Positions 1,266 through 52,583 of a stretch of DNA of 52,747 nt are shown piece after piece (within the stretch, counting starts at the first letter, position 1; each line of letters begins with the position of its first letter). Both the position numbers and the translations under genes were made by a program. The DNA lies in the IMG/VR virus record IMGVR_UViG_3300025892_001683, positions 1 to 52,747 of that record; one strand, written 5' to 3'. Under the pieces are notes generated by a model. The model worked only from the letters and a program-made list of their open reading frames with translations. It was not told the origin of the DNA and ran no database searches. Origin of the DNA: a virus (taxonomy: Duplodnaviria > Caudoviricetes).

Positions 1266-1990
1266 TAGTCTGTCTGGCTTATATCAACGTCAAAGTCATC
1301 ACCGGATATTGTCAGGTCAACGATGTTATCATTGATACCGCTTTGAGTTATATCAATTTTACCGCCTCCACCTGTTACACCAAGTGTGATTCCCATTCCT
1401 TGACTATCACCATTACCACTTTGCGTTGTTGTTATAGCAACACCTTCATCACTGTTATCACTGTTTATAGATGTTGATGCACTGTTGTCAACTGTTACAG
1501 TTAACGCTGCGCTCTGTCCGTCTACATCAGTATTAACGATGTTATTATCACCAGTTACAGTAAACGAAATAGTTGAACTATCAGCACTGGCACTTTCACC
1601 AATGTCAAAGTCGTATGTGTTATCGTCTCCGGTAGTAGTAATATTAAGTGTCACAGTATCACAGTTTCCTGTAGCAGAACTGGAACATAGCAGATCCACG
1701 GTATTTGAGTCACCCGTAAACTGCCAGGTGCCAGTATAAGTGTCACCCTTAATTATTGCAGCAATAGTGTTAGAACTACCTGTTTGCGTAATTGCAAAGT
1801 TCATAGTATCGCCTGCTAGTGTAACGTCAGTACTTGATGTACCGATTACGTTGTTTGCTCCGTCTTGTGTGATGTCTAAGTCCAACCCGTCGCCTGATTG
1901 TGTAATGTAAATGTCATTAGCAAACGAAGGTGTTAAGAATAGCAACATCGCAACAAGAAGGATATTTGATATTGAAAATGATTTATTCAT
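1265..1990 (-). CDS. Curlin-like (CsgA/CsgB-like) repeat protein
   Basis: Signal peptide; repeated I-x-Q-x-G-x-x-N units (ITQSGDG, ITQDGANN, ITQTGSSN, ITQSGIND); directly downstream of csgG. Confidence 0.7.
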   Translation of the reverse strand: MNKSFSISNILLVAMLLFLTPSFANDIYITQSGDGLDLDITQDGANNVIGTSSTDVTLAGDTMNFAITQTGSSNTIAAIIKGDTYTGTWQFTGDSNTVDLLCSSSATGNCDTVTLNITTTGDDNTYDFDIGESASADSSTISFTVTGDNNIVNTDVDGQSAALTVTVDNSASTSINSDNSDEGVAITTTQSGNGDSQGMGITLGVTGGGGKIDITQSGINDNIVDLTISGDDFDVDISQTD

Positions 1991-2843
1991 TATTCGCTCC
2001 TTCTTCCTTTATGGTTTTGTTATTATGGTCCTGCGGATGAGTTTGTATAAGTGTCGCCTTGCCTTTAAACTTCCACAGTTCTTTTACCTCTCCCTGGTGT
2101 ATTAACTCAACTACGGCTGCTTCGATTGCAGTTCTCACAGCATAATTGACAGGTTCATTCACAGCACTTCCGCTTTCTATCTCTAAAGCCTTAGTGCCAA
2201 GATCCAGGAACCTAAATACGTCTGCTCCAGACCTGTGACTAGCGATTCGCTTTTCGGTCGCTGTAGTAAGCAAAACTTCTCCTGTCTGCACACTTACGAT
2301 TCGCATTGCCACTGTTACTTGGTCTATACGGTATTGCATGTTAGCACCAATACCGAAATAACGAGCACCTATGCCCCCACTTTCGATATTGCTTTCATAA
2401 CCAACTACACCACCTTCTATCATTAGACCAGCAAACAATAATGGTTTTAATTTAATTGCCTCTTTGCCTTCATATACTTCCCTTGTACTTTTAATAAGTT
2501 GCCTTTCCTTGACGAGGTTATCAAGACCAATCCTCTCTACGACAGTGAACCAAGTGCTGTCGCCTACTTCCTTTAGTGCCTGTACTACCCATACTTCTGA
2601 GCCTTGTGTAATCGCAGAACTTAACTGCGAAAAATTTTGATTTGGTTTACGTTGCCCTGTCTTGTCCATAAAATTGTAAACTGCTATAGTAATCTTTGGA
2701 CCGTCTAACTTAGGAACTGTATCAAGAACGCTTTGAATTGGAGACCGTGAAACTTCTGGTGGTGTCCATTTCGCTTGATTCATAGATGTGGCGCACCCCG
2801 AGAGTACAATCGCCATTACTATCGCCATCACAGTCTTAAGCAC
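1983..2843 (-). CDS. csgG: Curli secretion channel CsgG (lipoprotein)
   Basis: Lipobox LSGC; AVYNFMDKTGQRK, WFTVVERIGLDNLVKERQLI and IEGGVVGYESN motifs typical of CsgG. Confidence 0.9.
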   Translation of the reverse strand: MLKTVMAIVMAIVLSGCATSMNQAKWTPPEVSRSPIQSVLDTVPKLDGPKITIAVYNFMDKTGQRKPNQNFSQLSSAITQGSEVWVVQALKEVGDSTWFTVVERIGLDNLVKERQLIKSTREVYEGKEAIKLKPLLFAGLMIEGGVVGYESNIESGGIGARYFGIGANMQYRIDQVTVAMRIVSVQTGEVLLTTATEKRIASHRSGADVFRFLDLGTKALEIESGSAVNEPVNYAVRTAIEAAVVELIHQGEVKELWKFKGKATLIQTHPQDHNNKTIKEEGANNE

Positions 2844-2852
2844 TAGTTCCTC

Positions 2853-3305
2853 CTAAAATCCAAATCCAGTTAGCGGAACAATTAGTTCTGTAAATGTTCC
2901 GTCTTCTTCTGTGATTTGCACAGTTATGGTGCCTGCTGTTTCGTCCTTTATCCAGTATATTGTCGCGCCTTCGATTTCAGCAGTGCCTGTTAATGCACCG
3001 TTCTCTTCGAACATACCGTCAACTAAATTCTTTGAAATTTGTGCGTAAATTCTAGATTCTACGTTGTTCAAGAATTTTGCCAATGTGGTATTTGCTGCTT
3101 CTCTCGCAGCAGCACGTTCTTTAGCCTCAGCCTCGTCTTTTAATGCTGCTTTTCTGTTGGCTTGCAATTGCTCTATTGCCAACACGTGGTTAGAATATCC
3201 TTGTCCACTAAATGAGGGATTTTTAAAGTTGAATGTCATACTATCAGCCACTGCTGTAGAAGCAGTCAGTGTCAGTATTAAAGTTGTTACCCAAATTTTG
3301 TTCAT
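2853..3305 (-). CDS. csgF: Curli assembly protein CsgF
   Basis: Signal peptide followed by FNFKNPSFSG (CsgF NPxFGG-like motif); adjacent to csgG. Confidence 0.8.
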   Translation of the reverse strand: MNKIWVTTLILTLTASTAVADSMTFNFKNPSFSGQGYSNHVLAIEQLQANRKAALKDEAEAKERAAAREAANTTLAKFLNNVESRIYAQISKNLVDGMFEENGALTGTAEIEGATIYWIKDETAGTITVQITEEDGTFTELIVPLTGFGF

Positions 3306-4427: not shown

Positions 4428-5123
4428 TTATGTCAGTTTAGGAAAGAGCATGTCAGTGCAAAACTTGTCTACGTCCGCTTCATCTAAGCCTAAAGACTTC
4501 ATTGTGCGTGGTGTATGTGGGTTCTGTTGCTGATTGTGGCAGTAGTAGTTCTGCGCTTCTGCTGTTTTTTCAGGATCAGCAGTTCCTGTAAATTCGCCTA
4601 TTTCTGCAAAGTATGCACGTAGATTATCAAGTGCAAGTTGAATGATAACAGTTGCTTCTTCTTCTCTTACATTACTTGCTGCAATCATGCTTGGAGTAAA
4701 GATGTTTGTTGCCCACTCTGGTAATGCACGCCTCTTCTCTGGTACAAAGTCTTGTACTGCTTCCATATAGCCGTTAATCATAGGATGGTTAACACCGCCA
4801 CTACTACGACTGAAGTCATGGAATGCACCTGTCATTTTCTTCTTACCTGATATAACATCAAACCCATATATAGGTCCATCATTGCTTAATACAGGAAATA
4901 CACAAACATGCATCATCCACAGGCCTTTTGTTTCACGTGCATCAACTACATCAATATGAGCTCTACGAACATGTTCGTTTTGCCATACTCTATTGATCCA
5001 TAGTTCGTTGTTAAAGTGTGCTAGTCCTGGTTCATCATATTCTGTGCCGTTAGCATCAAAGATATTAAGAATCTCTTGTTTGCACTCAATGAGTTTATCC
5101 CATATTATACTACTTTGGGACAT
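4428..5123 (-). CDS. pcyX: Ferredoxin-dependent bilin reductase, PcyX type
   Basis: RRAHIDVVD, MMHVCVFP, PIYGFDVI, GAFHDFS, LPEWA.IF and YCHNQQQNPHT motifs; coupled to a heme oxygenase. Confidence 0.85.
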   Translation of the reverse strand: MSQSSIIWDKLIECKQEILNIFDANGTEYDEPGLAHFNNELWINRVWQNEHVRRAHIDVVDARETKGLWMMHVCVFPVLSNDGPIYGFDVISGKKKMTGAFHDFSRSSGGVNHPMINGYMEAVQDFVPEKRRALPEWATNIFTPSMIAASNVREEEATVIIQLALDNLRAYFAEIGEFTGTADPEKTAEAQNYYCHNQQQNPHTPRTMKSLGLDEADVDKFCTDMLFPKLT

Positions 5124-5658
5124 ATTGCATCATGTCTTTGAATAGTTCAGTTGCATAATCAAAACATATTTTTGCTTCGTCTGCCATACTGTCATTTGTT
5201 TTTGCTCTAATAGACTCTTTAGTTTCTTTTATATCACCTTCAAAGTCATAAAACGTTCCTTTACCTGGAATACGTTTTTTAATCATTTGTCCACCACTTA
5301 GGTCTCCCATATGTCTTACATATACATGTGCCATAAGTTTATCAGCATCGTTCATAATTGTTTTCATATGAGCAAGATATTTTTTAGTTGCCATTGTGTG
5401 TTCTGGTGGTTTCTCATCTTGTGGCCAAAGTTCTCTAAAATCTGCTAGTATTGATTTAGATCTCATTATGTGTGGAAAGTCATCTAATAGACCTTGCGCT
5501 CTTGCCATAACTTCTAAAACTTCATAACACGGAAATTGATTCCAAAGATATGTTGCATACAGTTTAGGATCAATTGATCCGCCCATTAAGTGTTTTACAA
5601 ATTGTTGTCTTTCTGCGTTCTTATGGTGTTCCCATGTTAATTCTTTAAGGTTGTTCAT
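5110..5658 (-). CDS. hemO: Heme oxygenase
   Basis: LKELTWEHHKNAE (proximal His) and AHVYVRHMGDLSGGQMI distal helix. Confidence 0.92.
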   Translation of the reverse strand: MNNLKELTWEHHKNAERQQFVKHLMGGSIDPKLYATYLWNQFPCYEVLEVMARAQGLLDDFPHIMRSKSILADFRELWPQDEKPPEHTMATKKYLAHMKTIMNDADKLMAHVYVRHMGDLSGGQMIKKRIPGKGTFYDFEGDIKETKESIRAKTNDSMADEAKICFDYATELFKDMMQYVPK

Positions 5659-5963
5659 TCTTCCTCGATCCTAATTTTTAGTGGAGATCCATTTTTCCTA
5701 GCATAGGATGTAGATTCTATTGCAAGGTGTTCTGCTAATTCATGAGAATAAATTCCTGCAATACCACTGCCGGTATTATGTATTTCCATTGTTACTTTTT
5801 TTGCTGATTCTTCAGTATGTTTAAAAAATGCCTTTAAGATATCTATCACAAGATCCATAGGAGTTACGTCATCATTTAGTAACAGCACTTTCCACAACCC
5901 CGGAGGCTGGACGTCTATTTTAACTTGTTCATCGATTATTATATCTTCTTTAACGTCCGTCAT
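5655..5963 (-). CDS. clpS: Clp protease adaptor ClpS
   Basis: KVLLLNDDVTPMDLV...MEIHNTGSGIAGIY...PLK. Confidence 0.92.
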   Translation of the reverse strand: MTDVKEDIIIDEQVKIDVQPPGLWKVLLLNDDVTPMDLVIDILKAFFKHTEESAKKVTMEIHNTGSGIAGIYSHELAEHLAIESTSYARKNGSPLKIRIEEE

Positions 5964-5979
5964 ATTTTAACCTATAAAT

Positions 5980-6003
5980 TGTGAGGGAGTTGCCTCCCTC
6001 ACA
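5980..6003 (-). terminator. GC-rich hairpin between hsp20 and clpS (terminator or stabiliser)
   Basis: TGTGAGGGAG-GCAA-CTCCCTCACA perfect stem; U-tract is weak. Confidence 0.6.
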
Positions 6004-6014
6004 TTGTTCTACAG

Positions 6015-6458
6015 TTACTTAACTTCGATACTTCTTGCTTTCTTAGATTCTGGAATAATTCTTTCCAAAGAAATTCTAAGTAAACCATCTTTAAGTTCAG
6101 CACCTTTTACTTCTATTTCATCTGCAATAGTAAAGGCTTTTGTAAAGTGTCTTTTACTTATACCTTTGTAAAGCACACCGTCCCCGTCATCTGCATTAGT
6201 TTCGTGAATAGATTTGATAGTAATTACACTATCTTTGTATTCTACGTTAATATCTTTTTTACTAAATCCAGCCAACGCCACTTCAATATCATAAGTGTAT
6301 TCACCTGTCTTATTGATATTGTATGGTGGGTAGTTACTGCTTGAACTGTTCATAAAGAACTCGTCATTGAACATACTTTCAAAGCGTTCAAACATAGGAT
6401 CAAATCCTACAGTTACTGGTCTTAGTTGATTAAAGATAGATAGATTTTTGCTTGTCAT
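6015..6458 (-). CDS. Small heat-shock protein (Hsp20/IbpA family)
   Basis: NYPPYNI, IEVALAGF, YKGIS.R.F and A.LKDGLL.I.L motifs; start moved to ATG 6458 because of the AAGGAG SD. Confidence 0.93.
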   Translation of the reverse strand: MTSKNLSIFNQLRPVTVGFDPMFERFESMFNDEFFMNSSSSNYPPYNINKTGEYTYDIEVALAGFSKKDINVEYKDSVITIKSIHETNADDGDGVLYKGISKRHFTKAFTIADEIEVKGAELKDGLLRISLERIIPESKKARSIEVK

Positions 6459-6515
6459 AGTTTTCTCCTTATTAAGCAAGTTAATTTGAACAAACCCTGT
6501 TGGCGTTTGCTCAAA
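6459..6515 (-). promoter_or_regulatory. ROSE-like RNA thermometer in the hsp20 5' UTR
   Basis: 11-bp hairpin (6515-6485), then CUUGCUU-AAU-AAGGAG pairing the SD with a bulged G. Confidence 0.65.
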
Positions 6516-6582
6516 AGTATTTATCATACTCATATATTATATATGTATGAAACGATAAATTTCAAGTTTAAATCTTTCCAAA

Positions 6583-8341: not shown

Positions 8342-8647
8342 TTAAATTTTAGCCGCTTCTTTTTGTTTCTTCTTCCATCTTGCGATCCCAGCCTTTTTTG
8401 CTGTTCTTCTTTTTTCGCTTGGCTTTTGATAGTATTGCCTATCTCTTAATTCTTTAAATAAACCTGCTCTCTCAATTTTCTTTTTTAATTTTCTAAGAGC
8501 TTTGTTTATGTCTTCGCCTTCACGAACAAAAACTTGTAACCCACCTGGAGCAGGATTGCTATTGTTGTCTCTATCTCTATTTGGTTTTTTATAATTAGAA
8601 AAACTACTATAGTTGTTTTTCCCTTTGTTTCTATTATATCCTTGCAT
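8342..8647 (-). CDS. rpsU: Ribosomal protein bS21 with N/R-rich N-terminal extension
   Basis: VFVREGEDINKALRKLKKKIE...ELRDRQYYQKPSEKRR. Confidence 0.9.
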   Translation of the reverse strand: MQGYNRNKGKNNYSSFSNYKKPNRDRDNNSNPAPGGLQVFVREGEDINKALRKLKKKIERAGLFKELRDRQYYQKPSEKRRTAKKAGIARWKKKQKEAAKI

Positions 8648-15343: not shown

Positions 15344-16417
15344 TCAAGAAGAAATTAACGTTTGCTGGTACGGATCAACATCCAAATACTTGCCCCATTC
15401 TGTATAGTAATGGCGCATGCCTACTTCATCGTGTATGGTTCCGTTCTCATGTCTACCATGCAATATGTTACGTGCTTCTGTGCCTTCACGCATTGTAGTT
15501 CCTTGTCCTGCTACACCAATTAGGTCTTCATGTAGGTTACGCCCGAACGGTCCCCATATGCTGTTGTGATGATTGATACGTGTGCGTCTTTCTTCTGGTG
15601 TGTCTTTGCGTAGTCCATAACCTCTAAACTCTATAAGCACTTTGTTAGGACCTAATGGAGTAACACTGTCGCTTCTATACGCACTGCCACGCAAGTTAAA
15701 ATTAAAGCCTGGGAACAAGTCTACCATATACCATTGGTTGGGCGGCAGATTAGGAAAGGACAGTTCGCCTCTATCTTCAAAGCCTTCATACTCTTCGTAG
15801 TTGACAGTGAATGAACTTACATTTACATGTCCGTTGTCAAAAGGTATATTCTTACGTGCAAAGTATTCATCATTGAATCCGCTTACACGATTGAAGTAGT
15901 GCATGAAGTCGTGATAGAATTCACTGTTAGTATCGTGCCAAAGTTTGTAGTTTGTATCTATAACTGCTTTGTGATAATGAAACACTTCCATTTCTTCTGT
16001 GTCAATAGCATCTGCTATACAATCAAATGCCCCTGCTGTCCACTCTTCAACACTCTGTGTAGGATTAGGATCAAGTGTTACCCATACCATACCTCCGTGC
16101 TTTACTTCACAGTGTAGTTTAGGTTCACTTGTTACGACAGGTGCTTTAAATGTACCGCTTGGCTGACTAATTCCATAGTTTCGCCATGCATGAACACGTT
16201 TGCCAGTATTGTATGCAAGTACGTTTACACCTGCTATCTGTGAAGTTCTAAAGTCTCCTTGATTATACATTTCACTAATGTGACATATAGGCACCCATAC
16301 CTTTGAAAAGATATGTTCTTGTTCTTGTGCAAATATTTCTGGACTATTGTAGGCTGTGCTACTGATTGATTCTACGTTTGGTTGTGCTAACCAATTCTTA
16401 TGATTACGTGGTGGCAT
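15344..16417 (-). CDS. Ring-hydroxylating oxygenase alpha-subunit homologue (methanesulfonate monooxygenase MsmA-like) lacking the Rieske ligands
   Basis: Y.SPEIFAQEQEHIFSKVWVPICH N-terminus; NYKLWHDTNSEFYHDFMH and HEDL mononuclear-iron motifs; no CxH or CxxH. Confidence 0.8.
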   Translation of the reverse strand: MPPRNHKNWLAQPNVESISSTAYNSPEIFAQEQEHIFSKVWVPICHISEMYNQGDFRTSQIAGVNVLAYNTGKRVHAWRNYGISQPSGTFKAPVVTSEPKLHCEVKHGGMVWVTLDPNPTQSVEEWTAGAFDCIADAIDTEEMEVFHYHKAVIDTNYKLWHDTNSEFYHDFMHYFNRVSGFNDEYFARKNIPFDNGHVNVSSFTVNYEEYEGFEDRGELSFPNLPPNQWYMVDLFPGFNFNLRGSAYRSDSVTPLGPNKVLIEFRGYGLRKDTPEERRTRINHHNSIWGPFGRNLHEDLIGVAGQGTTMREGTEARNILHGRHENGTIHDEVGMRHYYTEWGKYLDVDPYQQTLISS

Positions 16418-16491
16418 GGTTTCTCCTTATGCTATATTTAAATTATTATAGCACAGAAAAAATATAAAATCTAATAGACTGTGTCTATTGA

Positions 16492-16773
16492 TTAATAGTA
16501 AGGATTGTTAAAGTTTGGATCGTCCATTCCGTCAACTGCTGTTACTTCTGGAATGTAATGTTTAAGCATATTCTCGACACCCAATTTAAGAGTAACTGTA
16601 CTACTTGCACAGCCGGAACATGATCCTTGTAGTAAAACACTTACACGGCCTGTTTTCTGATCAAAGTCTTCAAACTTAATAAAACCTCCGTGTTGTTCTA
16701 CAGCAGGTTGTACCTGCTCGTCGATAATTTTATTAATTCTAATAACTGTATCGTTGTATTCTTCTTTATTCAT
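16492..16773 (-). CDS. NifU/NfuA-type Fe-S carrier domain
   Basis: VQPAVEQHGG, LQGSCSGCASSTVTLKLGVE. Confidence 0.92.
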   Translation of the reverse strand: MNKEEYNDTVIRINKIIDEQVQPAVEQHGGFIKFEDFDQKTGRVSVLLQGSCSGCASSTVTLKLGVENMLKHYIPEVTAVDGMDDPNFNNPYY

Positions 16774-16821
16774 ATAGGTATTTATCGTACAACTTGCCTC
16801 TAGGGGTAAGAAAATTTAGCC

Positions 16822-16851
16822 AAAAAGAAAGGGTGCCGTTGCCGACACCCC
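16822..16851 (-). terminator. Rho-independent terminator
   Basis: GGGTGTCG-GCAA-CGGCACCC followed by TTTCTTTTT. Confidence 0.8.
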
Positions 16852-16857
16852 CACAGT

Positions 16858-17922
16858 TTAAGCGAACTGTTTTGCTATTTCTCTTTCTGCTTCAGTAGCC
16901 ATCTCCTTATCCCATTTGTCCAAATGCTTTTTCATAAAGCGATTGAACACAGGAGGAATTAATGCTAATGCAAAAAGTGTGAAGTAACCTACACCTGTGT
17001 TAGGTGCGCCTACTTCGTCAAGTTCCCAGAAGTGTGTTTCACCTCTGTCATGATGATCAGCCTGGCGACCAATCTCTATGAAGAACCAACTTGTGAATAA
17101 TGTAGAATTATCCCATGAGTGTCTATAGTCTATTGGTTCGCTCTTAACACGAATCAAACCATAGTGTTCAAGATAGTTAAGTGCTTCAAGTTCGAAGTTT
17201 GATATTAACCAAACAAGTCCGATACATGCGACACCTAACCAACCACCTGCAAAGAAAAACAATGCAAGTGTAGGTACACTCATCATGTAACCTCTTATCC
17301 ATCTGTTACTTACGGATAAGAAAGGTTTACCTAAACGTTTCAATCTACCACGTTCCATTTCAAACAAGAACTTACTTTGTCCTAAGTGTGATTTAGCATA
17401 GTGTGAATAGATATCACGTCCTCTAGGTGCAGTTGCAGGATCATCTTCACTTGCTAATTCCAAGTGATGATTGTACACATGAGCATAACAGAAATGTGCT
17501 GAACCACTTAGTCCCATCATCCAACGACTTATTACAAATGCAATGCCTTTGGTGTGCGATAGTTCATGCCCATAGATTATACCTATGCCTGCAAATATAC
17601 CTGTTGATAGTGTAGCACCTAATAGTTCTGCACCTGCCATACCATTAAATATTTGGTAAGCAAGAGCTAACTGTAATGCTACAAAGACTGGCAACATCAA
17701 ATACATAACCATATTCTGTAACCAGGGGATACCTAAGGTCTCTCCATTCTCATCAACTGCTCCACGAGTGTGTTTAGTGATAAGTGTGTCAAGTATAATG
17801 CCTACTCCCAATAAGCCTACACCTGTCCATGCCCATGCTCCACCTGCCAACACTCCTGCGAGTGTTACAAGTATTAACAATGGTGCTATGAAGTACCTTA
17901 TGTTTACGAAAAGTTTATTCAT
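16858..17922 (-). CDS. AlkB/XylM-like membrane di-iron hydroxylase
   Basis: HELSH, HVYNHH, NYLEHYG and QADHH His boxes; EDDPATA; TM helices; start 17922 has GGGAG SD. Confidence 0.85.
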   Translation of the reverse strand: MNKLFVNIRYFIAPLLILVTLAGVLAGGAWAWTGVGLLGVGIILDTLITKHTRGAVDENGETLGIPWLQNMVMYLMLPVFVALQLALAYQIFNGMAGAELLGATLSTGIFAGIGIIYGHELSHTKGIAFVISRWMMGLSGSAHFCYAHVYNHHLELASEDDPATAPRGRDIYSHYAKSHLGQSKFLFEMERGRLKRLGKPFLSVSNRWIRGYMMSVPTLALFFFAGGWLGVACIGLVWLISNFELEALNYLEHYGLIRVKSEPIDYRHSWDNSTLFTSWFFIEIGRQADHHDRGETHFWELDEVGAPNTGVGYFTLFALALIPPVFNRFMKKHLDKWDKEMATEAEREIAKQFA

Positions 17923-18101
17923 TGTGTTTCTCCCGGCTTTCGCCTGTAGTTTATCACAATGTTCGTAATAGAACCTTTCTATTACTTTACTATAATACTG
18001 TAACACAATAAGTGAACAGTGTCAAGTATATACAAGTATTTAATAGATCGACGGAAAAACCACCGTGTTATAGAATATAGGTAGATACTAATATACTAGG
18101 G

Positions 18102-19070
18102 TTATATAAAGTAATTTCTTACAGTTTTTACAAATAAGGACACATTCTTAGGAGGTGTTTCTTTTAAAATACCATGACCTAAACCACATACCCATCCTGT
18201 AGGATCTTCGATAGTTTTGAGCCATTTTTGGATTTCTTTTTCTAATGTTTCACTATCTTGTAAAAGTAATGTTTCGTCAAAGTTTCCTTGTACAAATCCT
18301 GTATCAACTTTCTTAAGAGTTTTGTTTAGGTCAACTGTACTATCTACACCTATACCTGCAAAATTTAAATCAATTACTTTGTTTAAACTATTATAAGGAA
18401 GTGTTCTAGAATAATATGCTGTATTGCCGACATCTGCAAGTTGTTTCAAAAGAACAACACTATATTCTTTGTCAAAATAACTCTTATTAATATTTGAAAG
18501 ACCGCTATCAAATATCATTACACAATCAGCACCTGCTTCAATTTGTTTTTTAATACTTTCTTTAAGTAATGGTACAATTACATTCTTCAAATAGTTGTGT
18601 TTGAAGTCATCGCTTACTTCTTCATCACCTATCGCATAATTTAAAATAGTCCAAGGTCCACCTACAAATCCAACTAATCCTTTTTTGTGAGATAACCTAT
18701 CTCTAGTTTGTTTAAGTGCTTTTGATTGAAAATTCAAAAACTTTAATGCTTTTCCTATGTCTTTATGATCTACCCAATTGTCTTCGTCTAGGTTCCATTC
18801 GAACTTTGGCCCTGGATTAAACTTCAACGGTAACCCTAGCCCTTCTAGATGAAACAGTATATCACTAAAAAGTATTGCTACATCAAAATCAAATTCATCA
18901 ATAGGTAGCATTGCTACATCTGATGCAAGTCTTGGAAGTTTGCACATTTGTTCAAATGACCAATCTTGTTTCATTGCCATGTATGATGATTGGTATCTAC
19001 CTGCTTGCCTCATCATCCATATTGGAGGACACTGATTTTCTCTCCGTAGTAGAGCATTCTCAAATTTCAA
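18102..19070 (-). CDS. hemE: Uroporphyrinogen decarboxylase
   Basis: PIWMMRQAGRY, AILFSDIL, GFVGGPWT, QGNFD, LGHGI. Confidence 0.93.
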   Translation of the reverse strand: MKFENALLRRENQCPPIWMMRQAGRYQSSYMAMKQDWSFEQMCKLPRLASDVAMLPIDEFDFDVAILFSDILFHLEGLGLPLKFNPGPKFEWNLDEDNWVDHKDIGKALKFLNFQSKALKQTRDRLSHKKGLVGFVGGPWTILNYAIGDEEVSDDFKHNYLKNVIVPLLKESIKKQIEAGADCVMIFDSGLSNINKSYFDKEYSVVLLKQLADVGNTAYYSRTLPYNSLNKVIDLNFAGIGVDSTVDLNKTLKKVDTGFVQGNFDETLLLQDSETLEKEIQKWLKTIEDPTGWVCGLGHGILKETPPKNVSLFVKTVRNYFI

Positions 19071-19093
19071 AAAACGATTCCTTTTTGTTTTTA

Positions 19094-19651
19094 TTATGCC
19101 GCCGCAATATTATCGTTGGCAGTCAAATAGTCCATTATATTTTCTGGTGATGTTTCGCCATATGGATCGTCATTTTCTTTTGACGCTTCTGGTTCGACAA
19201 AACCTTTTTCTACTACGCCGTCATTGATAACAACAGCGAAACGTCTTGAACGCATACCAAATCCTTTGTGTCTAAAGTCAATTAGCATACCTAATGTTTC
19301 TGCTAGTTCACCATTACCGTCTGGGATAACTTTTACGTTCTTAATGCCAAGGTGTTGCGCCCAAGCATTCATTACAAAACTATCATTAACACTTGAAACG
19401 TAAATTTCATCTATGCCTAAGGTATTAGTAATGGCTTTATAGTTTTCTTCAAATCCCGGAAGTTGATAAGTTGAACATGTTGGTGTAAATGCACCTGGTA
19501 AAGAGAACACAATAACTCTCTTACCTGCAAATAAATCATCAGTAGTCTTACCTACAAATTCGCCGCCAATTGGACAGCCGCCGTCTTCTGGTGCTTCATC
19601 GCCTACTCTACACTGAAAGGTAATAGTAGGAATCTTCTTTTCTTCAATCAT
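19094..19651 (-). CDS. Peroxiredoxin (Prx5-like)
   Basis: FSLPGAFTPTCS, SVNDSFVMNAW, PDGNG, GMRSRR. Confidence 0.93.
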   Translation of the reverse strand: MIEEKKIPTITFQCRVGDEAPEDGGCPIGGEFVGKTTDDLFAGKRVIVFSLPGAFTPTCSTYQLPGFEENYKAITNTLGIDEIYVSSVNDSFVMNAWAQHLGIKNVKVIPDGNGELAETLGMLIDFRHKGFGMRSRRFAVVINDGVVEKGFVEPEASKENDDPYGETSPENIMDYLTANDNIAAA

Positions 19652-19747
19652 ATAGTTTTTTAGTCCTGTTAGTTTGCTTTAAAATTTTTTAAAGTCTATT
19701 GCATTATATTTTATCTATAATAATATGTCAAGCACTTATTCTTGAAA

Positions 19748-20024
19748 GTGCAACTTTTCTGTTGCCAGGTAAGTTGCCAACCCCGTCACCTAGTTAAACT
19801 AGGCAGCAAGAGCAAAGTTTTCGTTTGCGTCTATCGTTTTGTTCGCGATAACGGTGCTTACATCCCGGTAATCTCGTTCACCTTTAACAAGCCAGTCGAT
19901 CCTAGTTCGCCCCCATCATAAGCACATTAAATTGTCTGTGTTAATCTTCAATGTGCTTATGGTGGAGGCGTCGGGTACTGCCCCCGAGTCCTGTTCTTGT
20001 GACATATGATGCTGTCATCAATTA
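19748..20024 (-). ncRNA. ssrA: Circularly permuted (two-piece) tmRNA; tag ANENFALAA
   Basis: Acceptor piece ends CGCCUCCACCA at 19960; hairpin intervening segment 19959-19915; coding piece starts GGGGGCG at 19914 (G3-U Ala identity pair); tag 19828-19799; GGCAGUA T-loop; outer ends approximate. Confidence 0.93.
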
Positions 20025-20029
20025 CACTA

Positions 20030-20060
20030 TATTTATAACACCTTTTTAAAGGTTTGTCAA
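20030..20060 (-). promoter_or_regulatory. Dual early/late promoter for tmRNA
   Basis: TTGACA-N17-TATAAA, with the -10 box embedded in TATAAATA. Confidence 0.7.
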
Positions 20061-20074
20061 TCTTTTTTTAAGAA

Positions 20075-20165
20075 TGGTAGCAGTGGCCGGATTCGAACCG
20101 ACATCAGCCAATTATCTGTTGCTACGGAGTATAAACCCGCTGTTTTACCATTAAACTACACTGCC
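20075..20165 (-). tRNA. tRNA with UAU anticodon (Ile) and long variable arm
   Basis: GGCAGTG/CACTGCT acceptor stem, A73, CCA; anticodon loop TTTATAC; about 21-nt variable region; GTTCGAATC T-arm. Confidence 0.85.
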
Positions 20166-20171
20166 AAAGAA

Positions 20172-20246
20172 TGGTGGGCCCGGAGAGAATCGAACTCCCG
20201 ACAAGACCGTTATGAGCGGCCGGTTCTACCACTGAACTACAAGCCC
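20172..20246 (-). tRNA. tRNA-CAU, most likely Ile2 (lysidine-modified)
   Basis: GGGCTTG/CGGGCCC acceptor stem, GGCCG-CTCATAA-CGGTC anticodon arm, encoded CCA; no initiator features. Confidence 0.85.
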
Positions 20247-43536: not shown

Positions 43537-43767
43537 TTATTCTATACCTAGTTTATTATAGGCCTCTTCAAATCCTTCTTCATGTATGTATGATTCTTCA
43601 TTATACCATACACGTTTAAAATAACCATCGTAGCAATCTAGAATGCAATCTTCACTTGCATTGAGGTGCCCTTTTACTAACCAAAAAATCCTATAAGCAT
43701 CTTTCTTATTAATCTTTAAGGCCTTCGCCTTTGTCCTTGTATGCCCATTCATCTGTATGTCCAACAC
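43537..43767 (-). CDS. Small hypothetical protein (start uncertain)
   Basis: ORF track; fills the gap, but the true start is probably later. Confidence 0.5.
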   Translation of the reverse strand: MLDIQMNGHTRTKAKALKINKKDAYRIFWLVKGHLNASEDCILDCYDGYFKRVWYNEESYIHEEGFEEAYNKLGIE

Positions 43768-44359
43768 TCCATTTAGGGTTATTTTCTACTGTATAATTCT
43801 GTGTACAAACTTTAAAGTCTGGTGTTTTTCTTTCTGCTGGCACTAGACTTTGATCTGTAAACACAACTCTATTATTTGGTTGTGCTGCTATTTGTCCATT
43901 GTCTAGTTTGATAACGTTAAATGATTTATGCTCTGGATCGTGTTCAGCAAAGTTAGTATCGAGTGTACTGTTTTGTGCGTGACAAGTATCTAGTGTGAAC
44001 ATGTATTCACCTTTGTGCATTTTACGATCCTTACCAAAGAACTCACAATCTGCTAACATAGGTTTTTTAATTACTGTAATATCATAATCAAAGCAATCCC
44101 ATATCTGTAGAGTATCTAATGGCAGTTGATTATCTTTATCATAATCTTCTTTCCATACAAATGCTGATATAGGAAGTTTGTCGTATAGTGCGCCATATTC
44201 TAGGAGTAGCGTTTCAAAGTATAATGCTTTACCTTGTATGCTTCTAACACTTATCCACATTCCAGGAGTTAGTTCACCATGTCCCTTTTGATGATCATAA
44301 AGATATTCTTTCTTTACATACACTTCAACGGGCGGTAGATTATGTACTAGAAAAGCCAC
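43709..44359 (-). CDS. Phage hypothetical protein
   Basis: GTG start with AGGAG SD; YVKKEYLYD, LPISAFV, WDCF, AAQPNNR. Confidence 0.8.
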   Translation of the reverse strand: MAFLVHNLPPVEVYVKKEYLYDHQKGHGELTPGMWISVRSIQGKALYFETLLLEYGALYDKLPISAFVWKEDYDKDNQLPLDTLQIWDCFDYDITVIKKPMLADCEFFGKDRKMHKGEYMFTLDTCHAQNSTLDTNFAEHDPEHKSFNVIKLDNGQIAAQPNNRVVFTDQSLVPAERKTPDFKVCTQNYTVENNPKWSVGHTDEWAYKDKGEGLKD

Positions 44360-44905: not shown

Positions 44906-45088
44906 ATGTTCAAAGCAATAAAAAAGTGGTGGAAAAGTTATGGCGAATGCGAGGAAGAGCTTGCAAGATTAGGAATATATTCATATACTAACGCATACGG
45001 ACATCCAACATATTTACATACTAAAGAAGATATTTCAAATGATAGACAAAAAACCGATAAACGAATTATTAAAAAACCTAAAAGATAG
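44906..45088 (+). CDS. Small hypothetical protein
   Basis: ATG 5 nt after TAAATA; overlaps the hemA start. Confidence 0.55.
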
Positions 45089-46244
45089 CGGCAAATATCG
45101 AGTTTTCAACGACATTATCCGTGAACGCGGAGATTTTCCTAGCGCAATCTGGTATGGTCCTTACAATATTAAAAAGATAGTTAACTGGTGCAGTAATGAT
45201 TACTTAGGTATGGGTCAACATAAAGTTGTTATAGATGCTATGCATACAGCATTAGACCAAACAGGATCAGGCAGTGGTGGTACAAGAAATATTGGTGGCA
45301 CAAGTCATTATCACGTAGCTCTTGAACACGAACTAGCAACACTACACAATAAAGCCAAAGCATTATTATTCACAAGTGCCTACGTTGCTAACGAATGGAG
45401 TCTTATTTCATTACCTAAGATTATACCGAATCTTGTTTACATAAGTGATAGTAACAATCATGCTAGTATGATTGAAGGCATAAGAAACAGTAGAGCACCT
45501 AAAATAATTTGGCAACACAACGATTTAGAACAACTAGAAGAATTATGTGCAAGTGCTGTACTTGCAGGGCAGACACCTTGCATAGTATTTGAATCAGTTT
45601 ACTCAATGGATGGTGATATATCACCAATGAAACAGATATGTGACATTGCAGACAAGTATAAAGCAATCACATATATTGACGAAGTCCACGCTGTTGGACT
45701 TTATGGGGAGCACGGAGGAGGCTGGACAGAGAAATTAGGGTTACAAAACCGTATTGATATAATCAATGGCACACTTGGAAAGGCCTTTGGAACCCAGGGC
45801 GGATACATTGCTGCTGATGCAGAAGTTATTGATGCTATACGTTCAGTCTCGTCCGGCTTTATCTTTACTACTTCAATGAGTCCTGTTACTTGTGCAGGTG
45901 CATTGGCTGCTGTAAAGTATTTGAAAGATCATAATGAAGTAAGAGTAAAGCACCAAGAACGTGCTAGGAAACTTAAACATCGTTTACAGAAGAATGGTAT
46001 AGAAGTTATGGAATGTAGCACAACACATATTGTTCCTGTGCTTGTTGGTAATGCTAAGAAGTGTAAAGCAATGAGTGATAGATTATTAAACGAACATAGT
46101 ATCTATGTTCAACCAATTAACTATCCTACAGTTGCAGAAGGTACAGAGCGATTAAGATTTGCTCCTACACCTTATCATGATGATGGAATGATTGAGGATC
46201 TTATTTTAGCTCTTCAGAAGACTTTTGAGCATCATCAGGAGTAA
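45039..46244 (+). CDS. hemA: 5-aminolevulinate synthase (C4/Shemin pathway)
   Basis: [52 protein letters not shown] (PLP Lys), [17 protein letters not shown]. Confidence 0.95.
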
Positions 46245-51644: not shown

Positions 51645-51840
51645 CAATGGACCAGTATTTGAAAAAGGTTATCCTAGTTACGAAGCAGTCAACCCAGTTC
51701 AAAGAACTTATGAAGTTACATACCCATCAGGTCAAACAGTACAATGGAAGAACTATACCATAACAGACTGTCTTATAAAATTTAATGGACATAACAGTAT
51801 GTATGATTATCAACTTAAAATTAAAGAGCTCAACAAATGA
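51637..51840 (+). CDS. Hypothetical protein
   Basis: ORF track; start uncertain. Confidence 0.6.
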   Translation: MNNNGPVFEKGYPSYEAVNPVQRTYEVTYPSGQTVQWKNYTITDCLIKFNGHNSMYDYQLKIKELNK

Positions 51841-52583
51841 TTTTAAGAATTGGTGTTAGGGGAAGTAAACTAGCATTAGCATATGCAGAACGTGTGTGCA
51901 ATGAGCTTTCTTGTGATACTAAAATAGAAATCATTAAAACAGACGGAGACTTGTTTCCTGATACTCCAATACACGAGATAGGTGGCAAGGGTGTGTTCTG
52001 CAATGCTATTGAATATGCACTTGCACAAGATATTATTGATGTTGCTGTTCATAGTTTAAAAGATATGCCCGGAGATGTAGAACATCCAGACTTACATATA
52101 TGTGCAGTGTTAGAACGTAATAGACCGCATGATGTTCTTATAGGTAATGTGTTTGATGGCTTTACATTAGGTACTAGCAGTCCTAGGCGTAAAGCACAAC
52201 TAGAAGAACTATATGCTAATCAAAATATACAGATTAAACCTATTAGAGGTAATATAGATACTAGACTTACTAAACTAGATTCAGGAGAATATGATGCTAT
52301 TGTACTTGCAGAAGCAGGACTAGATGCATTACAAATTAAAAGAGATTACATTAGGTTACCTATTGTCCCAGCAGTTGGGCAAGGTATTATTGCATTACAA
52401 ACACGCAAAGATGATGTAACGACAAACGAAATTGTTAGCAAAACAAATCATAAACTTACATATGAACAGGCAAAATTAGAAAGAGCATTGTTAAAAGGCA
52501 TAGGTGGAGATTGTTCTACAAAAGTTGCAGGTCATGCAACAGGTAGCAATCCTATTAAATTAGAGGCTGTGTATTATGATTGA
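51837..52583 (+). CDS. hemC: Porphobilinogen deaminase, C-terminally shortened
   Basis: RGSKLA, T.GD, GGKGVF, AVHSLKDMP, GTSSPRR.AQL, IRGNIDTRL, LAEAGL, PAVGQG, GGDC (cofactor Cys). Confidence 0.92.
   Translation: MILRIGVRGSKLALAYAERVCNELSCDTKIEIIKTDGDLFPDTPIHEIGGKGVFCNAIEYALAQDIIDVAVHSLKDMPGDVEHPDLHICAVLERNRPHDVLIGNVFDGFTLGTSSPRRKAQLEELYANQNIQIKPIRGNIDTRLTKLDSGEYDAIVLAEAGLDALQIKRDYIRLPIVPAVGQGIIALQTRKDDVTTNEIVSKTNHKLTYEQAKLERALLKGIGGDCSTKVAGHATGSNPIKLEAVYYD

Follow-up and report, generated by a model that had tools for sequence, protein, structure and literature searches.

A candidate catalytic-only half of a split methanesulfonate monooxygenase-type Rieske oxygenase encoded by a phage genome fragment

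Introduction

In Rieske oxygenases, the two centers within a subunit lie too distant for electron exchange; electrons instead leave the Rieske center of an alpha subunit and reach the iron of the neighboring one by way of a bridging carboxylate. The classical MsmABCD/MsmEFGH methanesulfonate system is known from Methylosulfonomonas methylovora M2 as well as from Filomicrobium (strains Y, W), and in the sections of Henriques and De Marco (2015; PMC4433239) drawn on here all proven methanesulfonate users have the CxH-X26-CxxH form of MsmA, a long-spacer motif treated there as the MsmA signature. The same sections describe Rieske-less "MsmA" proteins in phage HMO-2011, in many GOS and virome sequences and as one of the two proteins of Puniceispirillum marinum IMCC1322; all four Cys/His ligands are missing from these proteins, and no data supporting a role for the ligand-less proteins are reported in those sections (PMC4433239). 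The observation of a Rieske-less phage MsmA is therefore already published (PMC4433239), and a 2016 review repeats, in the passage concerned, the speculation that the phage protein oxidizes methanesulfonate (PMC4928673). Here, we analyze a gene of this kind in a marine tailed-phage record (Duplodnaviria; Caudoviricetes), IMGVR_UViG_3300025892_001683 of IMG/VR, whose entire 52,747-nucleotide (nt) stretch we call the window, and compare it with the chromosomal genes of SAR116 bacteria, the likely hosts of the phage. We refer to the short, catalytic-only form as alpha-C and to a Rieske-keeping paralog in those bacteria as alpha-R.

Two other described systems bear on how such a protein might work. 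In NdmCDE, the N7-demethylase of Pseudomonas putida CBB5 (Summers et al. 2013), the oxygenase NdmC has no Rieske cluster and the cluster is instead carried by the reductase NdmD, as described in the part of PMC4408171 used here. In CntA, the Rieske center and the iron lie 44 Å apart within a subunit and 12 Å apart across subunits, and the bridging E205 is essential, according to the portion of PMC7948474 relevant to this point.

A counterpart of the window gene in a cultured SAR116 phage is gene 61 of Puniceispirillum phage HMO-2011 (GU557055 47357-48439), annotated as "methanesulfonate monooxygenase hydroxylase alpha subunit", to which its product is 72.9% identical over 97% of the query. Like that gene, it stands alone, with no partner genes nearby. 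Unlike HMO-2011, a phage of another type with a 55-kb genome, the window is a fragment: it is the whole, linear record and, by CheckV estimate, about 17% of the phage genome, so that the phage is probably a jumbo phage of about 300 kb, mostly unseen; the neighboring genes also differ. We propose, with a probability of roughly 0.6, that the window gene encodes the catalytic-only half of an MsmA-type Rieske oxygenase whose alpha subunit has split into two complementary paralogs in SAR116, and that the phage plugs its alpha-C into the alpha-R, beta subunit and ferredoxin of the host.

Results and discussion

An alpha subunit lacking the Rieske center and keeping the iron site

In the window protein, Pfam finds the catalytic domain PF00848 (E 2.2e-7, above the curated cut-off) and does not find the Rieske domain PF00355 (Table 1). 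Matches to the oxygenase alpha-subunit models of NCBIfam are confined to residues 11-80, which lead into the Rieske fold, and no PHROGs family is found at E <= 1e-5. In alignments with full-length relatives, the window protein lacks the columns bearing CxH and CxxH, a gap of about 48 columns is seen in 8 of 8 short forms, and a CxH-x(10-40)-CxxH motif occurs within the first 160 residues of none of the 92 complete short-form genes. An earlier note on this DNA, made from its letters, had stated that all four cluster ligands are gone, and this is borne out. The same note called the center cleanly deleted, which is right in that the loss is in frame, but the stub left behind (residues 75-105, 31 residues) has itself diverged and is at most 24-35% identical to anything compared; the peptide quoted in the note corresponds to residues 75-109. 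Its description of the reading frame and Shine-Dalgarno site as intact also holds (Table 1).

The iron site, written in the note as D-x4-YH-x3-H...ED, is indeed intact, although its spacing is one residue off and reads D162-x3-E166-x2-H169-x3-H173. These residues align with the invariant Y-H...H columns of full-length relatives, and E297-D298 aligns, in a profile alignment, with the "ED" of 7vju chain A, the Asp of which we take to be the carboxylate iron ligand. E166, H169, H173, E297 and D298 are each conserved in all 92 complete short forms. By comparison with CntA E205, as described in the part of PMC7948474 cited above, E166 can be assigned the role of bridging Glu. Judged by these alignments, a 2-His-1-carboxylate iron site and its bridging carboxylate appear intact in alpha-C. 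The window protein thus lacks the Rieske domain of a Rieske oxygenase alpha subunit and has its catalytic domain.

An AlphaFold2 model of the window protein (mean predicted local distance difference test score, pLDDT, 88.8; predicted template modeling score 0.89) finds its best Foldseek matches in the terephthalate dioxygenase alpha subunits 7vju and 7q05 (E about 1e-21) and also resembles those of NagGH (salicylate 5-hydroxylase, 7c8z) and CntA (6y9c), with E about 1e-21 to 1e-18 and template modeling scores of 0.63-0.75 over the solved alpha subunits. A profile search of the PDB gives E 4e-65 against 7vju, and only weak matches, confined to the Rieske part, to NdmA (E 4e-12) and NdmB (E 1.5e-8). 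Alpha-C is therefore predicted to share the alpha-subunit fold of the head-to-tail trimers 7vju/7q05, 7c8z and 6y9c. To our knowledge, the solved head-to-tail Rieske oxygenases have both centers on every alpha subunit, unlike alpha-C.

The catalytic part of alpha-C (residues 106-350, 245 residues) is 73-75% identical to full-length MsmA from Hyphomicrobiaceae, Filomicrobium, Methyloligellaceae and Hansschlegelia loci. In a 68-row tree from a quick maximum-likelihood search, in which long branches are present, alpha-C (starred support of 100) and alpha-R (99, starred) group with classical alphaproteobacterial MsmA in a single clade (98, starred) from which more distant full-length relatives are excluded. 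The statement in the earlier note that the C-terminal half matches MsmA thus holds, and the phylogeny it called for groups the window protein with MsmA of Filomicrobium, Hyphomicrobiaceae, Hansschlegelia and others. Host alpha-C sequences form one clade (99, starred) nested among viral lineages.

A complementary paralog in the SAR116 msm cluster

Among one-per-species genomes, we found 22 loci with a short form (72-82% identical) and 58 with full-length MsmA. The chromosomal short form of SAR116 is 80% identical to the window protein and, unlike the window gene, lies in a cluster of the msmABCD/EFGH type. In the example we use throughout (L012, on a 606-kb contig), genes for an msmE-like binding protein and a permease diverge from the remaining genes, which on one strand encode a protein of about 800 amino acids (aa), a beta subunit, a 133-aa Rieske ferredoxin, a conserved 274-293-aa protein and the short form; the short form is followed by LysR, TauE sulfite exporters, a PanB-like enzyme, formate-tetrahydrofolate ligase and FolD or a GcvT-like protein. 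Classical clusters such as L064 hold msmA, msmB, msmC, an FNR-type msmD, a homolog of the conserved gene, LysR, TauE and GcvT. Since the beta subunit, Rieske ferredoxin, importer, sulfite exporter and C1-tetrahydrofolate enzymes are common to both, the SAR116 cluster can be regarded as a rebuilt msm cluster. The conserved gene of about 270 aa, which follows msmD in the classical clusters (Table 1), is shared as well; its 274-aa product has no match in Pfam, NCBIfam or PDB sequences.

The rebuilding concerns the alpha subunit and the reductase. The protein of about 800 aa consists of a Rieske domain, a degenerate MsmA-like catalytic domain (together alpha-R) and a ferredoxin-NAD+ reductase of the HcaD/AndAa type, which, by the HcaD/AndAa models, is the type that reduces Rieske ferredoxins. 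The classical MsmD, with Fer2, FAD_binding_6 and NAD_binding_1 domains, is FNR-type, whereas the SAR116 reductase is HcaD-type and fused to alpha-R. When 10 alpha-R fusions, 11 classical MsmA proteins and 8 short forms are aligned, the losses prove complementary: every alpha-R (10/10) keeps CxH-X26-CxxH and is missing both the two-His segment and the Asp segment, and every short form (8/8) is missing the cluster loops and has the iron segments nearly unchanged. Compared with classical MsmA, identity is 73-82% in the Rieske domain of alpha-R and 34-37% in its vestigial catalytic domain. Unlike classical MsmA, then, the window protein is without the CxH-X26-CxxH motif, which in SAR116 sits on a separate paralog that, by its sequence, would be catalytically dead. 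The pattern points to a split that arose in SAR116 by duplication and complementary loss. This complementary alpha-R/alpha-C split is absent from the literature searched (with supplements outside that search) and goes beyond the published observation of ligand-less proteins.

Alpha-C and alpha-R also occur together. Across 192 species genomes of the order, alpha-C is found in 15, alpha-R in 15 and both in 14. The two singletons are one genome with alpha-C alone (G121) and one with alpha-R alone (G085), where the open reading frame (ORF) is only 513 aa and possibly cut by the contig end; 175 genomes have none of alpha-C, alpha-R or MsmA. The remaining genome, G004 (Puniceispirillales), carries an intact MsmA (420-424 aa; L038 8001-9263) and lacks the short form. 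Its msmE-like binding protein shares 91% identity with the one encoded in the split-type cluster L012, so that intact and split systems are both represented in the order. In 12 of the 15 alpha-R genomes, alpha-R and reductase are joined in frames of 788-822 aa; one of the other three has two adjacent frames, and in two the frames, of 295 and 513 aa, may have been truncated where the contig stops. Among the 22 loci with a short form, 15 show msm context as far as the contig allows, and in two (L009, L014) the contig also carries alpha-R at a distance of about 11 kb, one of these with alpha-R and reductase as separate adjacent frames. The other five (L001-3, L019, L021) have no partner and come from metagenome-assembled genomes labeled as unrelated taxa, the genome behind L019 having the short form alone; these five are probably phage contigs.

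Selection acts on the two paralogs in mirror image. Using the Nei-Gojobori method on the 92 complete short-form genes, we obtained nonsynonymous to synonymous substitution ratios (dN/dS) for viral pairs of 0.07 overall, 0.036 for the catalytic domain, 0.14 for the N-terminus and about 0.28 for the stub, and for host pairs of 0.024, 0.012, 0.039 and 0.099, respectively; because dS is near saturation and many pairs were dropped, these ratios are rough, but their direction is clear. The stub is the least constrained part of alpha-C, and residues 1-74 are 61-62% identical to host alpha-C. In alpha-R (5 close pairs), it is the Rieske domain that is most constrained (0.023), followed by the reductase (0.07) and the vestigial catalytic domain (0.17), with the N-terminus and linker at 0.27-0.31. 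The alpha-C gene is thus under strong purifying selection (about 0.04 in the catalytic domain of viral pairs), where the earlier note had named relaxed selection as the mark of a decaying gene.

A common gene of phages

The earlier note also considered the case of a deletion confined to this contig and proposed a search for it in other phages. It proves common to hundreds of phage contigs: at least 599 viral stretches in IMG/VR encode the short form, and a protein database search returns 1179 clusters at E <= 0.001, the best 120 of which are all 327-397 aa long and 79-92% identical to the window protein, with PF00848 in 117 and a Rieske domain in none according to precomputed domains. A profile scan of viral contigs gave 323 relatives, and the best 80 of these are all short forms, 56-87% identical to the window protein, with the E.YH-x3-H motif in 80/80 and the Rieske motif in 0/80. 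The phage gene is therefore one more member of a very common family. Neither alpha-R nor full MsmA was found in viral contigs by a single-sequence scan or among the best 80 of the 323 profile relatives. In the window record, an alpha-R search matches only alpha-C itself; homologs of alpha-R, beta subunit, Rieske ferredoxin and importer are absent from the window and from the available flanks of 160 viral loci, in keeping with the statement in the earlier note (checked here in the window by tblastn) that no beta subunit, ferredoxin or reductase is adjacent.

Alpha-C sequences differ at their C-termini. Among the 92 complete short-form genes, 34 end in LAA, resembling the ssrA degradation tag, and 17 host copies end in AAE, as does classical MsmA; the window protein ends in ISS.

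A modeled alpha-R/alpha-C pair and a proposed electron path

The anatomy of the two paralogs, their shared cluster, their co-occurrence and the purifying selection on them suggest that alpha-R and alpha-C associate, and with this an electron path, a substrate and a benefit to the phage. We modeled the SAR116 alpha-R (L012, residues 30-385) with the window alpha-C as a two-chain complex alongside three controls. The pair scored 0.78 and the best control 0.00. Of 80 solved complexes, 58 reach the score mark used, as do 2 of 110 mismatched pairs; across runs, contact agreement was at least 74% and partner pLDDT at least 81. The confident contacts join alpha-R residues 87-97 and 121-124, which include both ligand loops, to alpha-C residues 162, 168-169, 171-172 and 300-330. 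In the model, the interface sets the cluster loops of alpha-R against the iron-site side of alpha-C, which is the productive, canonical orientation of neighboring subunits. The earlier note had called for heterotrimer models, and the two-chain model passes; many homotrimeric Rieske oxygenases have solved structures, however, and a pass may for this reason reflect likeness to them and not true binding.

With electron transfer running across subunits, an alpha-R/alpha-C hetero-oligomer would restore one productive pair. Electrons from NADH would enter the reductase domain of alpha-R, pass to the small Rieske ferredoxin and from there to the Rieske center of alpha-R, and then cross by way of Glu166/His169 of alpha-C to the alpha-C iron, with the beta subunit as scaffold. 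During infection, phage alpha-C would join the alpha-R, beta subunit and ferredoxin of the host and would keep up or raise the rate at which methanesulfonate, or a closely related C1 sulfonate, is oxidized to formaldehyde and sulfite. The earlier note had pictured mixed trimers with host MsmA. Action beside a Rieske-bearing host subunit is the part of that picture that is best supported, but ordinary MsmA is not the partner that our comparisons indicate; they point to the complementary host paralog, which has kept the Rieske center, lost the iron site and become fused to a reductase, and whose cluster in the same host also contains the short form.

NdmCDE is the nearest precedent for such an arrangement. 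Like it, the system has an oxygenase subunit with an iron site and no cluster and, in the hosts though not in the phage, a cluster on the reductase polypeptide. Unlike NdmD, an FNR-type reductase to which only a Rieske domain has been added, alpha-R amounts to an entire, degenerate alpha subunit joined to a flavoprotein of the glutathione reductase family, and unlike NdmCDE the system of SAR116 has retained a beta subunit as well as a Rieske ferredoxin that is separate. A scan of 25 ORFs at the L012 and L018 clusters shows no GST-like NdmE; the conserved gene without a family is found there instead. We regard the two as analogous and not as one family, in a sequence comparison that covered NdmA and NdmB.

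Several points weigh against the proposal of a phage alpha-C working with host alpha-R. In a head-to-tail ring of three subunits of two types, only one productive interface can form, which looks wasteful and makes stoichiometry a problem. The modeled alpha-R is a stand-in from one SAR116 species that may not be the host of this phage, and the link of the phage to a host comes from its transfer-messenger RNA (tmRNA), no more than a hint; 83% of the phage genome lies outside the window. The genomes in which both paralogs occur are closely related, so their counts are not independent events. The tree support comes from a quick search with long branches, and dS is near saturation, with many pairs removed from the ratios. 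Finally, the activity of the short form and methanesulfonate as its substrate are drawn from likeness to MsmA and from gene context, and the modeled interface is open to the objection from solved homotrimers given above.

Alternative readings

The alternative that survives best, though we consider it unlikely, is that alpha-C forms a homotrimer, with or without the beta subunit, and is reduced in trans by a carrier that docks transiently, be it the Rieske ferredoxin or alpha-R acting purely as an NdmD-like reductase, with no stable mixed ring. NdmCDE provides a precedent for a Rieske cluster carried on the reductase (PMC4408171, in the part used here), the SAR116 cluster encodes the separate 133-aa ferredoxin such a route would need, and all three active sites of the trimer would be retained. 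Yet the vestigial catalytic domain of alpha-R, about 220 residues long, is under constraint (dN/dS 0.17 against 0.27-0.31 for linker and N-terminus), which is hard to explain if the Rieske domain of alpha-R alone matters. The two-chain model likewise puts alpha-R in the canonical neighbor position, although stable and transient binding are inseparable there.

If alpha-C instead were, as the earlier note also proposed, a repurposed mononuclear-iron enzyme with no Rieske partner, acting on a different substrate or drawing on another reductant, its solitary state in phages would be accounted for: alpha-R, beta subunit and ferredoxin occur in 0 of the 160 viral flanks examined, and the neighbors of alpha-C vary between phages. 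We consider this improbable, as the bridging Glu166 is retained by all 92 short forms, the catalytic domain is still 73-75% identical to classical MsmA, and the host copy lies inside the msm cluster, with 14 genomes holding both paralogs and 2 singletons.

More improbable still are the other alternatives of the earlier note: a subunit that spares iron, or a dominant modulator, here taken as dominant-negative, that would join the MsmA trimers of the host and dampen C1/sulfur metabolism. Geometrically, full-length host MsmA could form mixed trimers with alpha-C, and G004 shows that a Puniceispirillales genome can have an intact MsmA and no short form. However, hosts encode alpha-C themselves within the operon and keep its catalytic domain at a dN/dS of 0.012, and all catalytic residues are conserved (92/92), which fits poorly with a dominant modulator. 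The iron-sparing role has no support, as the cluster is kept on alpha-R and the system as a whole would save no iron. That the gene is a fragment in decay, for which nothing speaks but the missing Rieske motif, can be rejected given the intact frame and Shine-Dalgarno site, the many relatives of like length (327-397 aa in the best 120 of 1179 clusters) and the low dN/dS (0.07 overall in viral pairs).

Returning to the split oxygenase, a broader version of it can be put forward only tentatively. D1 is a damage-prone protein that cyanophages resupply. By analogy, SAR116 bacteria and their phages might run an obligate two-gene Rieske oxygenase derived from one alpha subunit by duplication and complementary degeneration, with one paralog serving purely as an electron-receiving Rieske module joined to its reductase and the other purely as the catalytic module. 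Several unrelated types of phage would then carry a cluster-free catalytic cartridge that plugs into the electron-delivering scaffold of the host, and the LAA ends of 34 of the 92 short forms might mark programmed turnover. We hold this extension to be possible but doubtful.

Neighborhood of the window gene

In the window, alpha-C has as neighbors genes for a NifU-like protein, an AlkB-like membrane di-iron hydroxylase, HemE and a peroxiredoxin (Table 1). Of 80 viral loci, 11 have a NifU gene close to alpha-C, none has the AlkB-like gene there and 0-5 have the other neighbors; these genes are not conserved partners. A contig from DNA run X1 joins position 16461 to 19747, with 37 other letters between, and so omits a 3285-base cassette comprising the NifU-like, AlkB-like, HemE and peroxiredoxin genes; from this junction, the oxygenase gene of a sibling phage lies directly beside the tmRNA gene. 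In the window, the tmRNA gene is 3.3 kb from the alpha-C gene and is followed by two tRNA genes. The type of the tmRNA fits an alphaproteobacterial host.

Two metatranscriptome runs from one study (X3, X14) contain the 8 kb around the gene, but their contigs cover all of it, intergenic stretches included, as evenly as DNA runs X8 and X1 do, and they provide no evidence of transcription. A 216-aa ORF at 43709-44359, labeled "ferredoxin" by PHROGs, was not counted as an electron carrier; it has no Pfam hit and no obvious cluster motif. Across its length, the fragment encodes a heme/bilin set, with ferredoxin-dependent bilin reductase, heme oxygenase, HemE, HemC and a class I/II aminotransferase that is possibly 5-aminolevulinate synthase, as well as curli-secretion-like CsgG and CsgF, ClpS, an Hsp20 and a homolog of ribosomal protein S21 (Table 1).

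Table 1. Positions of the features discussed, numbered along the window unless another locus is named
Feature	Position	Strand	Basis or remark
Alpha-C gene, 357 aa; Rieske-less, catalytic-only MsmA-type oxygenase alpha subunit	15344..16417	-	ATG start, frame intact
Shine-Dalgarno AAGGAG	16423..16428	-	5 nt upstream of the alpha-C ATG; read from sequence
Alpha-C residues 1-74: N-terminal lead-in with the initial strands of what was once the Rieske domain	16196..16417	-	
Alpha-C residues 75-105: stub, former site of both cluster-binding loops (CxH, CxxH)	16103..16195	-	
Alpha-C residues 141-345: catalytic Ring_hydroxyl_A/SRPBCC domain	15383..15997	-	Pfam PF00848
Alpha-C E166-x2-H169-x3-H173: putative bridging carboxylate and two His iron ligands	15899..15922	-	Alignment
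Alpha-C E297-D298: Asp aligned with the carboxylate iron ligand	15524..15529	-	Alignment
NifU-like Fe-S carrier domain protein	16492-16773	-	PF01106, E 6e-25; directly upstream of alpha-C
FA_desaturase/AlkB-like membrane di-iron protein, 382 aa	16858-18006	-	PF00487, E 4e-28
Two-piece (permuted) tmRNA, alphaproteobacterial type, complete	19747-20075, 20078-20246	-	RF01849, 149 bits; RF04321, 117 bits
Heme/bilin set	4428-5658, 18102-19070, 45039-46244, 51837-52583		
Curli-secretion-like CsgG and CsgF, ClpS, Hsp20, ribosomal protein S21 homolog	1983-3305, 5655-6533, 8342-8647	-	
ClpS adaptor	5655-5963		
Conserved cluster gene, about 270 aa	L012 6921-7745	+	SAR116-type cluster
Conserved cluster gene, about 270 aa	L064 11293-12099	+	Classical cluster

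Implications

When dimethylsulfide is oxidized, methanesulfonate is one of the major products. In the part of the 2016 review cited here, SAR116 and phages of the HMO-2011 type are counted among the most abundant marine bacteria and viruses (PMC4928673). If the split is real, surveys of msmA that rely on the long-spacer Rieske motif, as in the relevant sections of PMC4433239, would count the non-catalytic half only, and the catalytic gene that they miss would be the one spread by phages; SAR116 pangenomes that score a single "msmA", as the parts of PMC8547437 and PMC12262181 used here do, would have to state which half was counted. The system would be a second natural and independently evolved case, after NdmCDE, of Rieske and catalytic functions residing on different polypeptides, and would offer a ready-made system for studies of inter-subunit electron transfer. 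For phage biology, it would represent an auxiliary gene that has meaning only together with a specific host partner, and the complementary host paralog would provide a concrete, testable mechanism for how such a gene acts.

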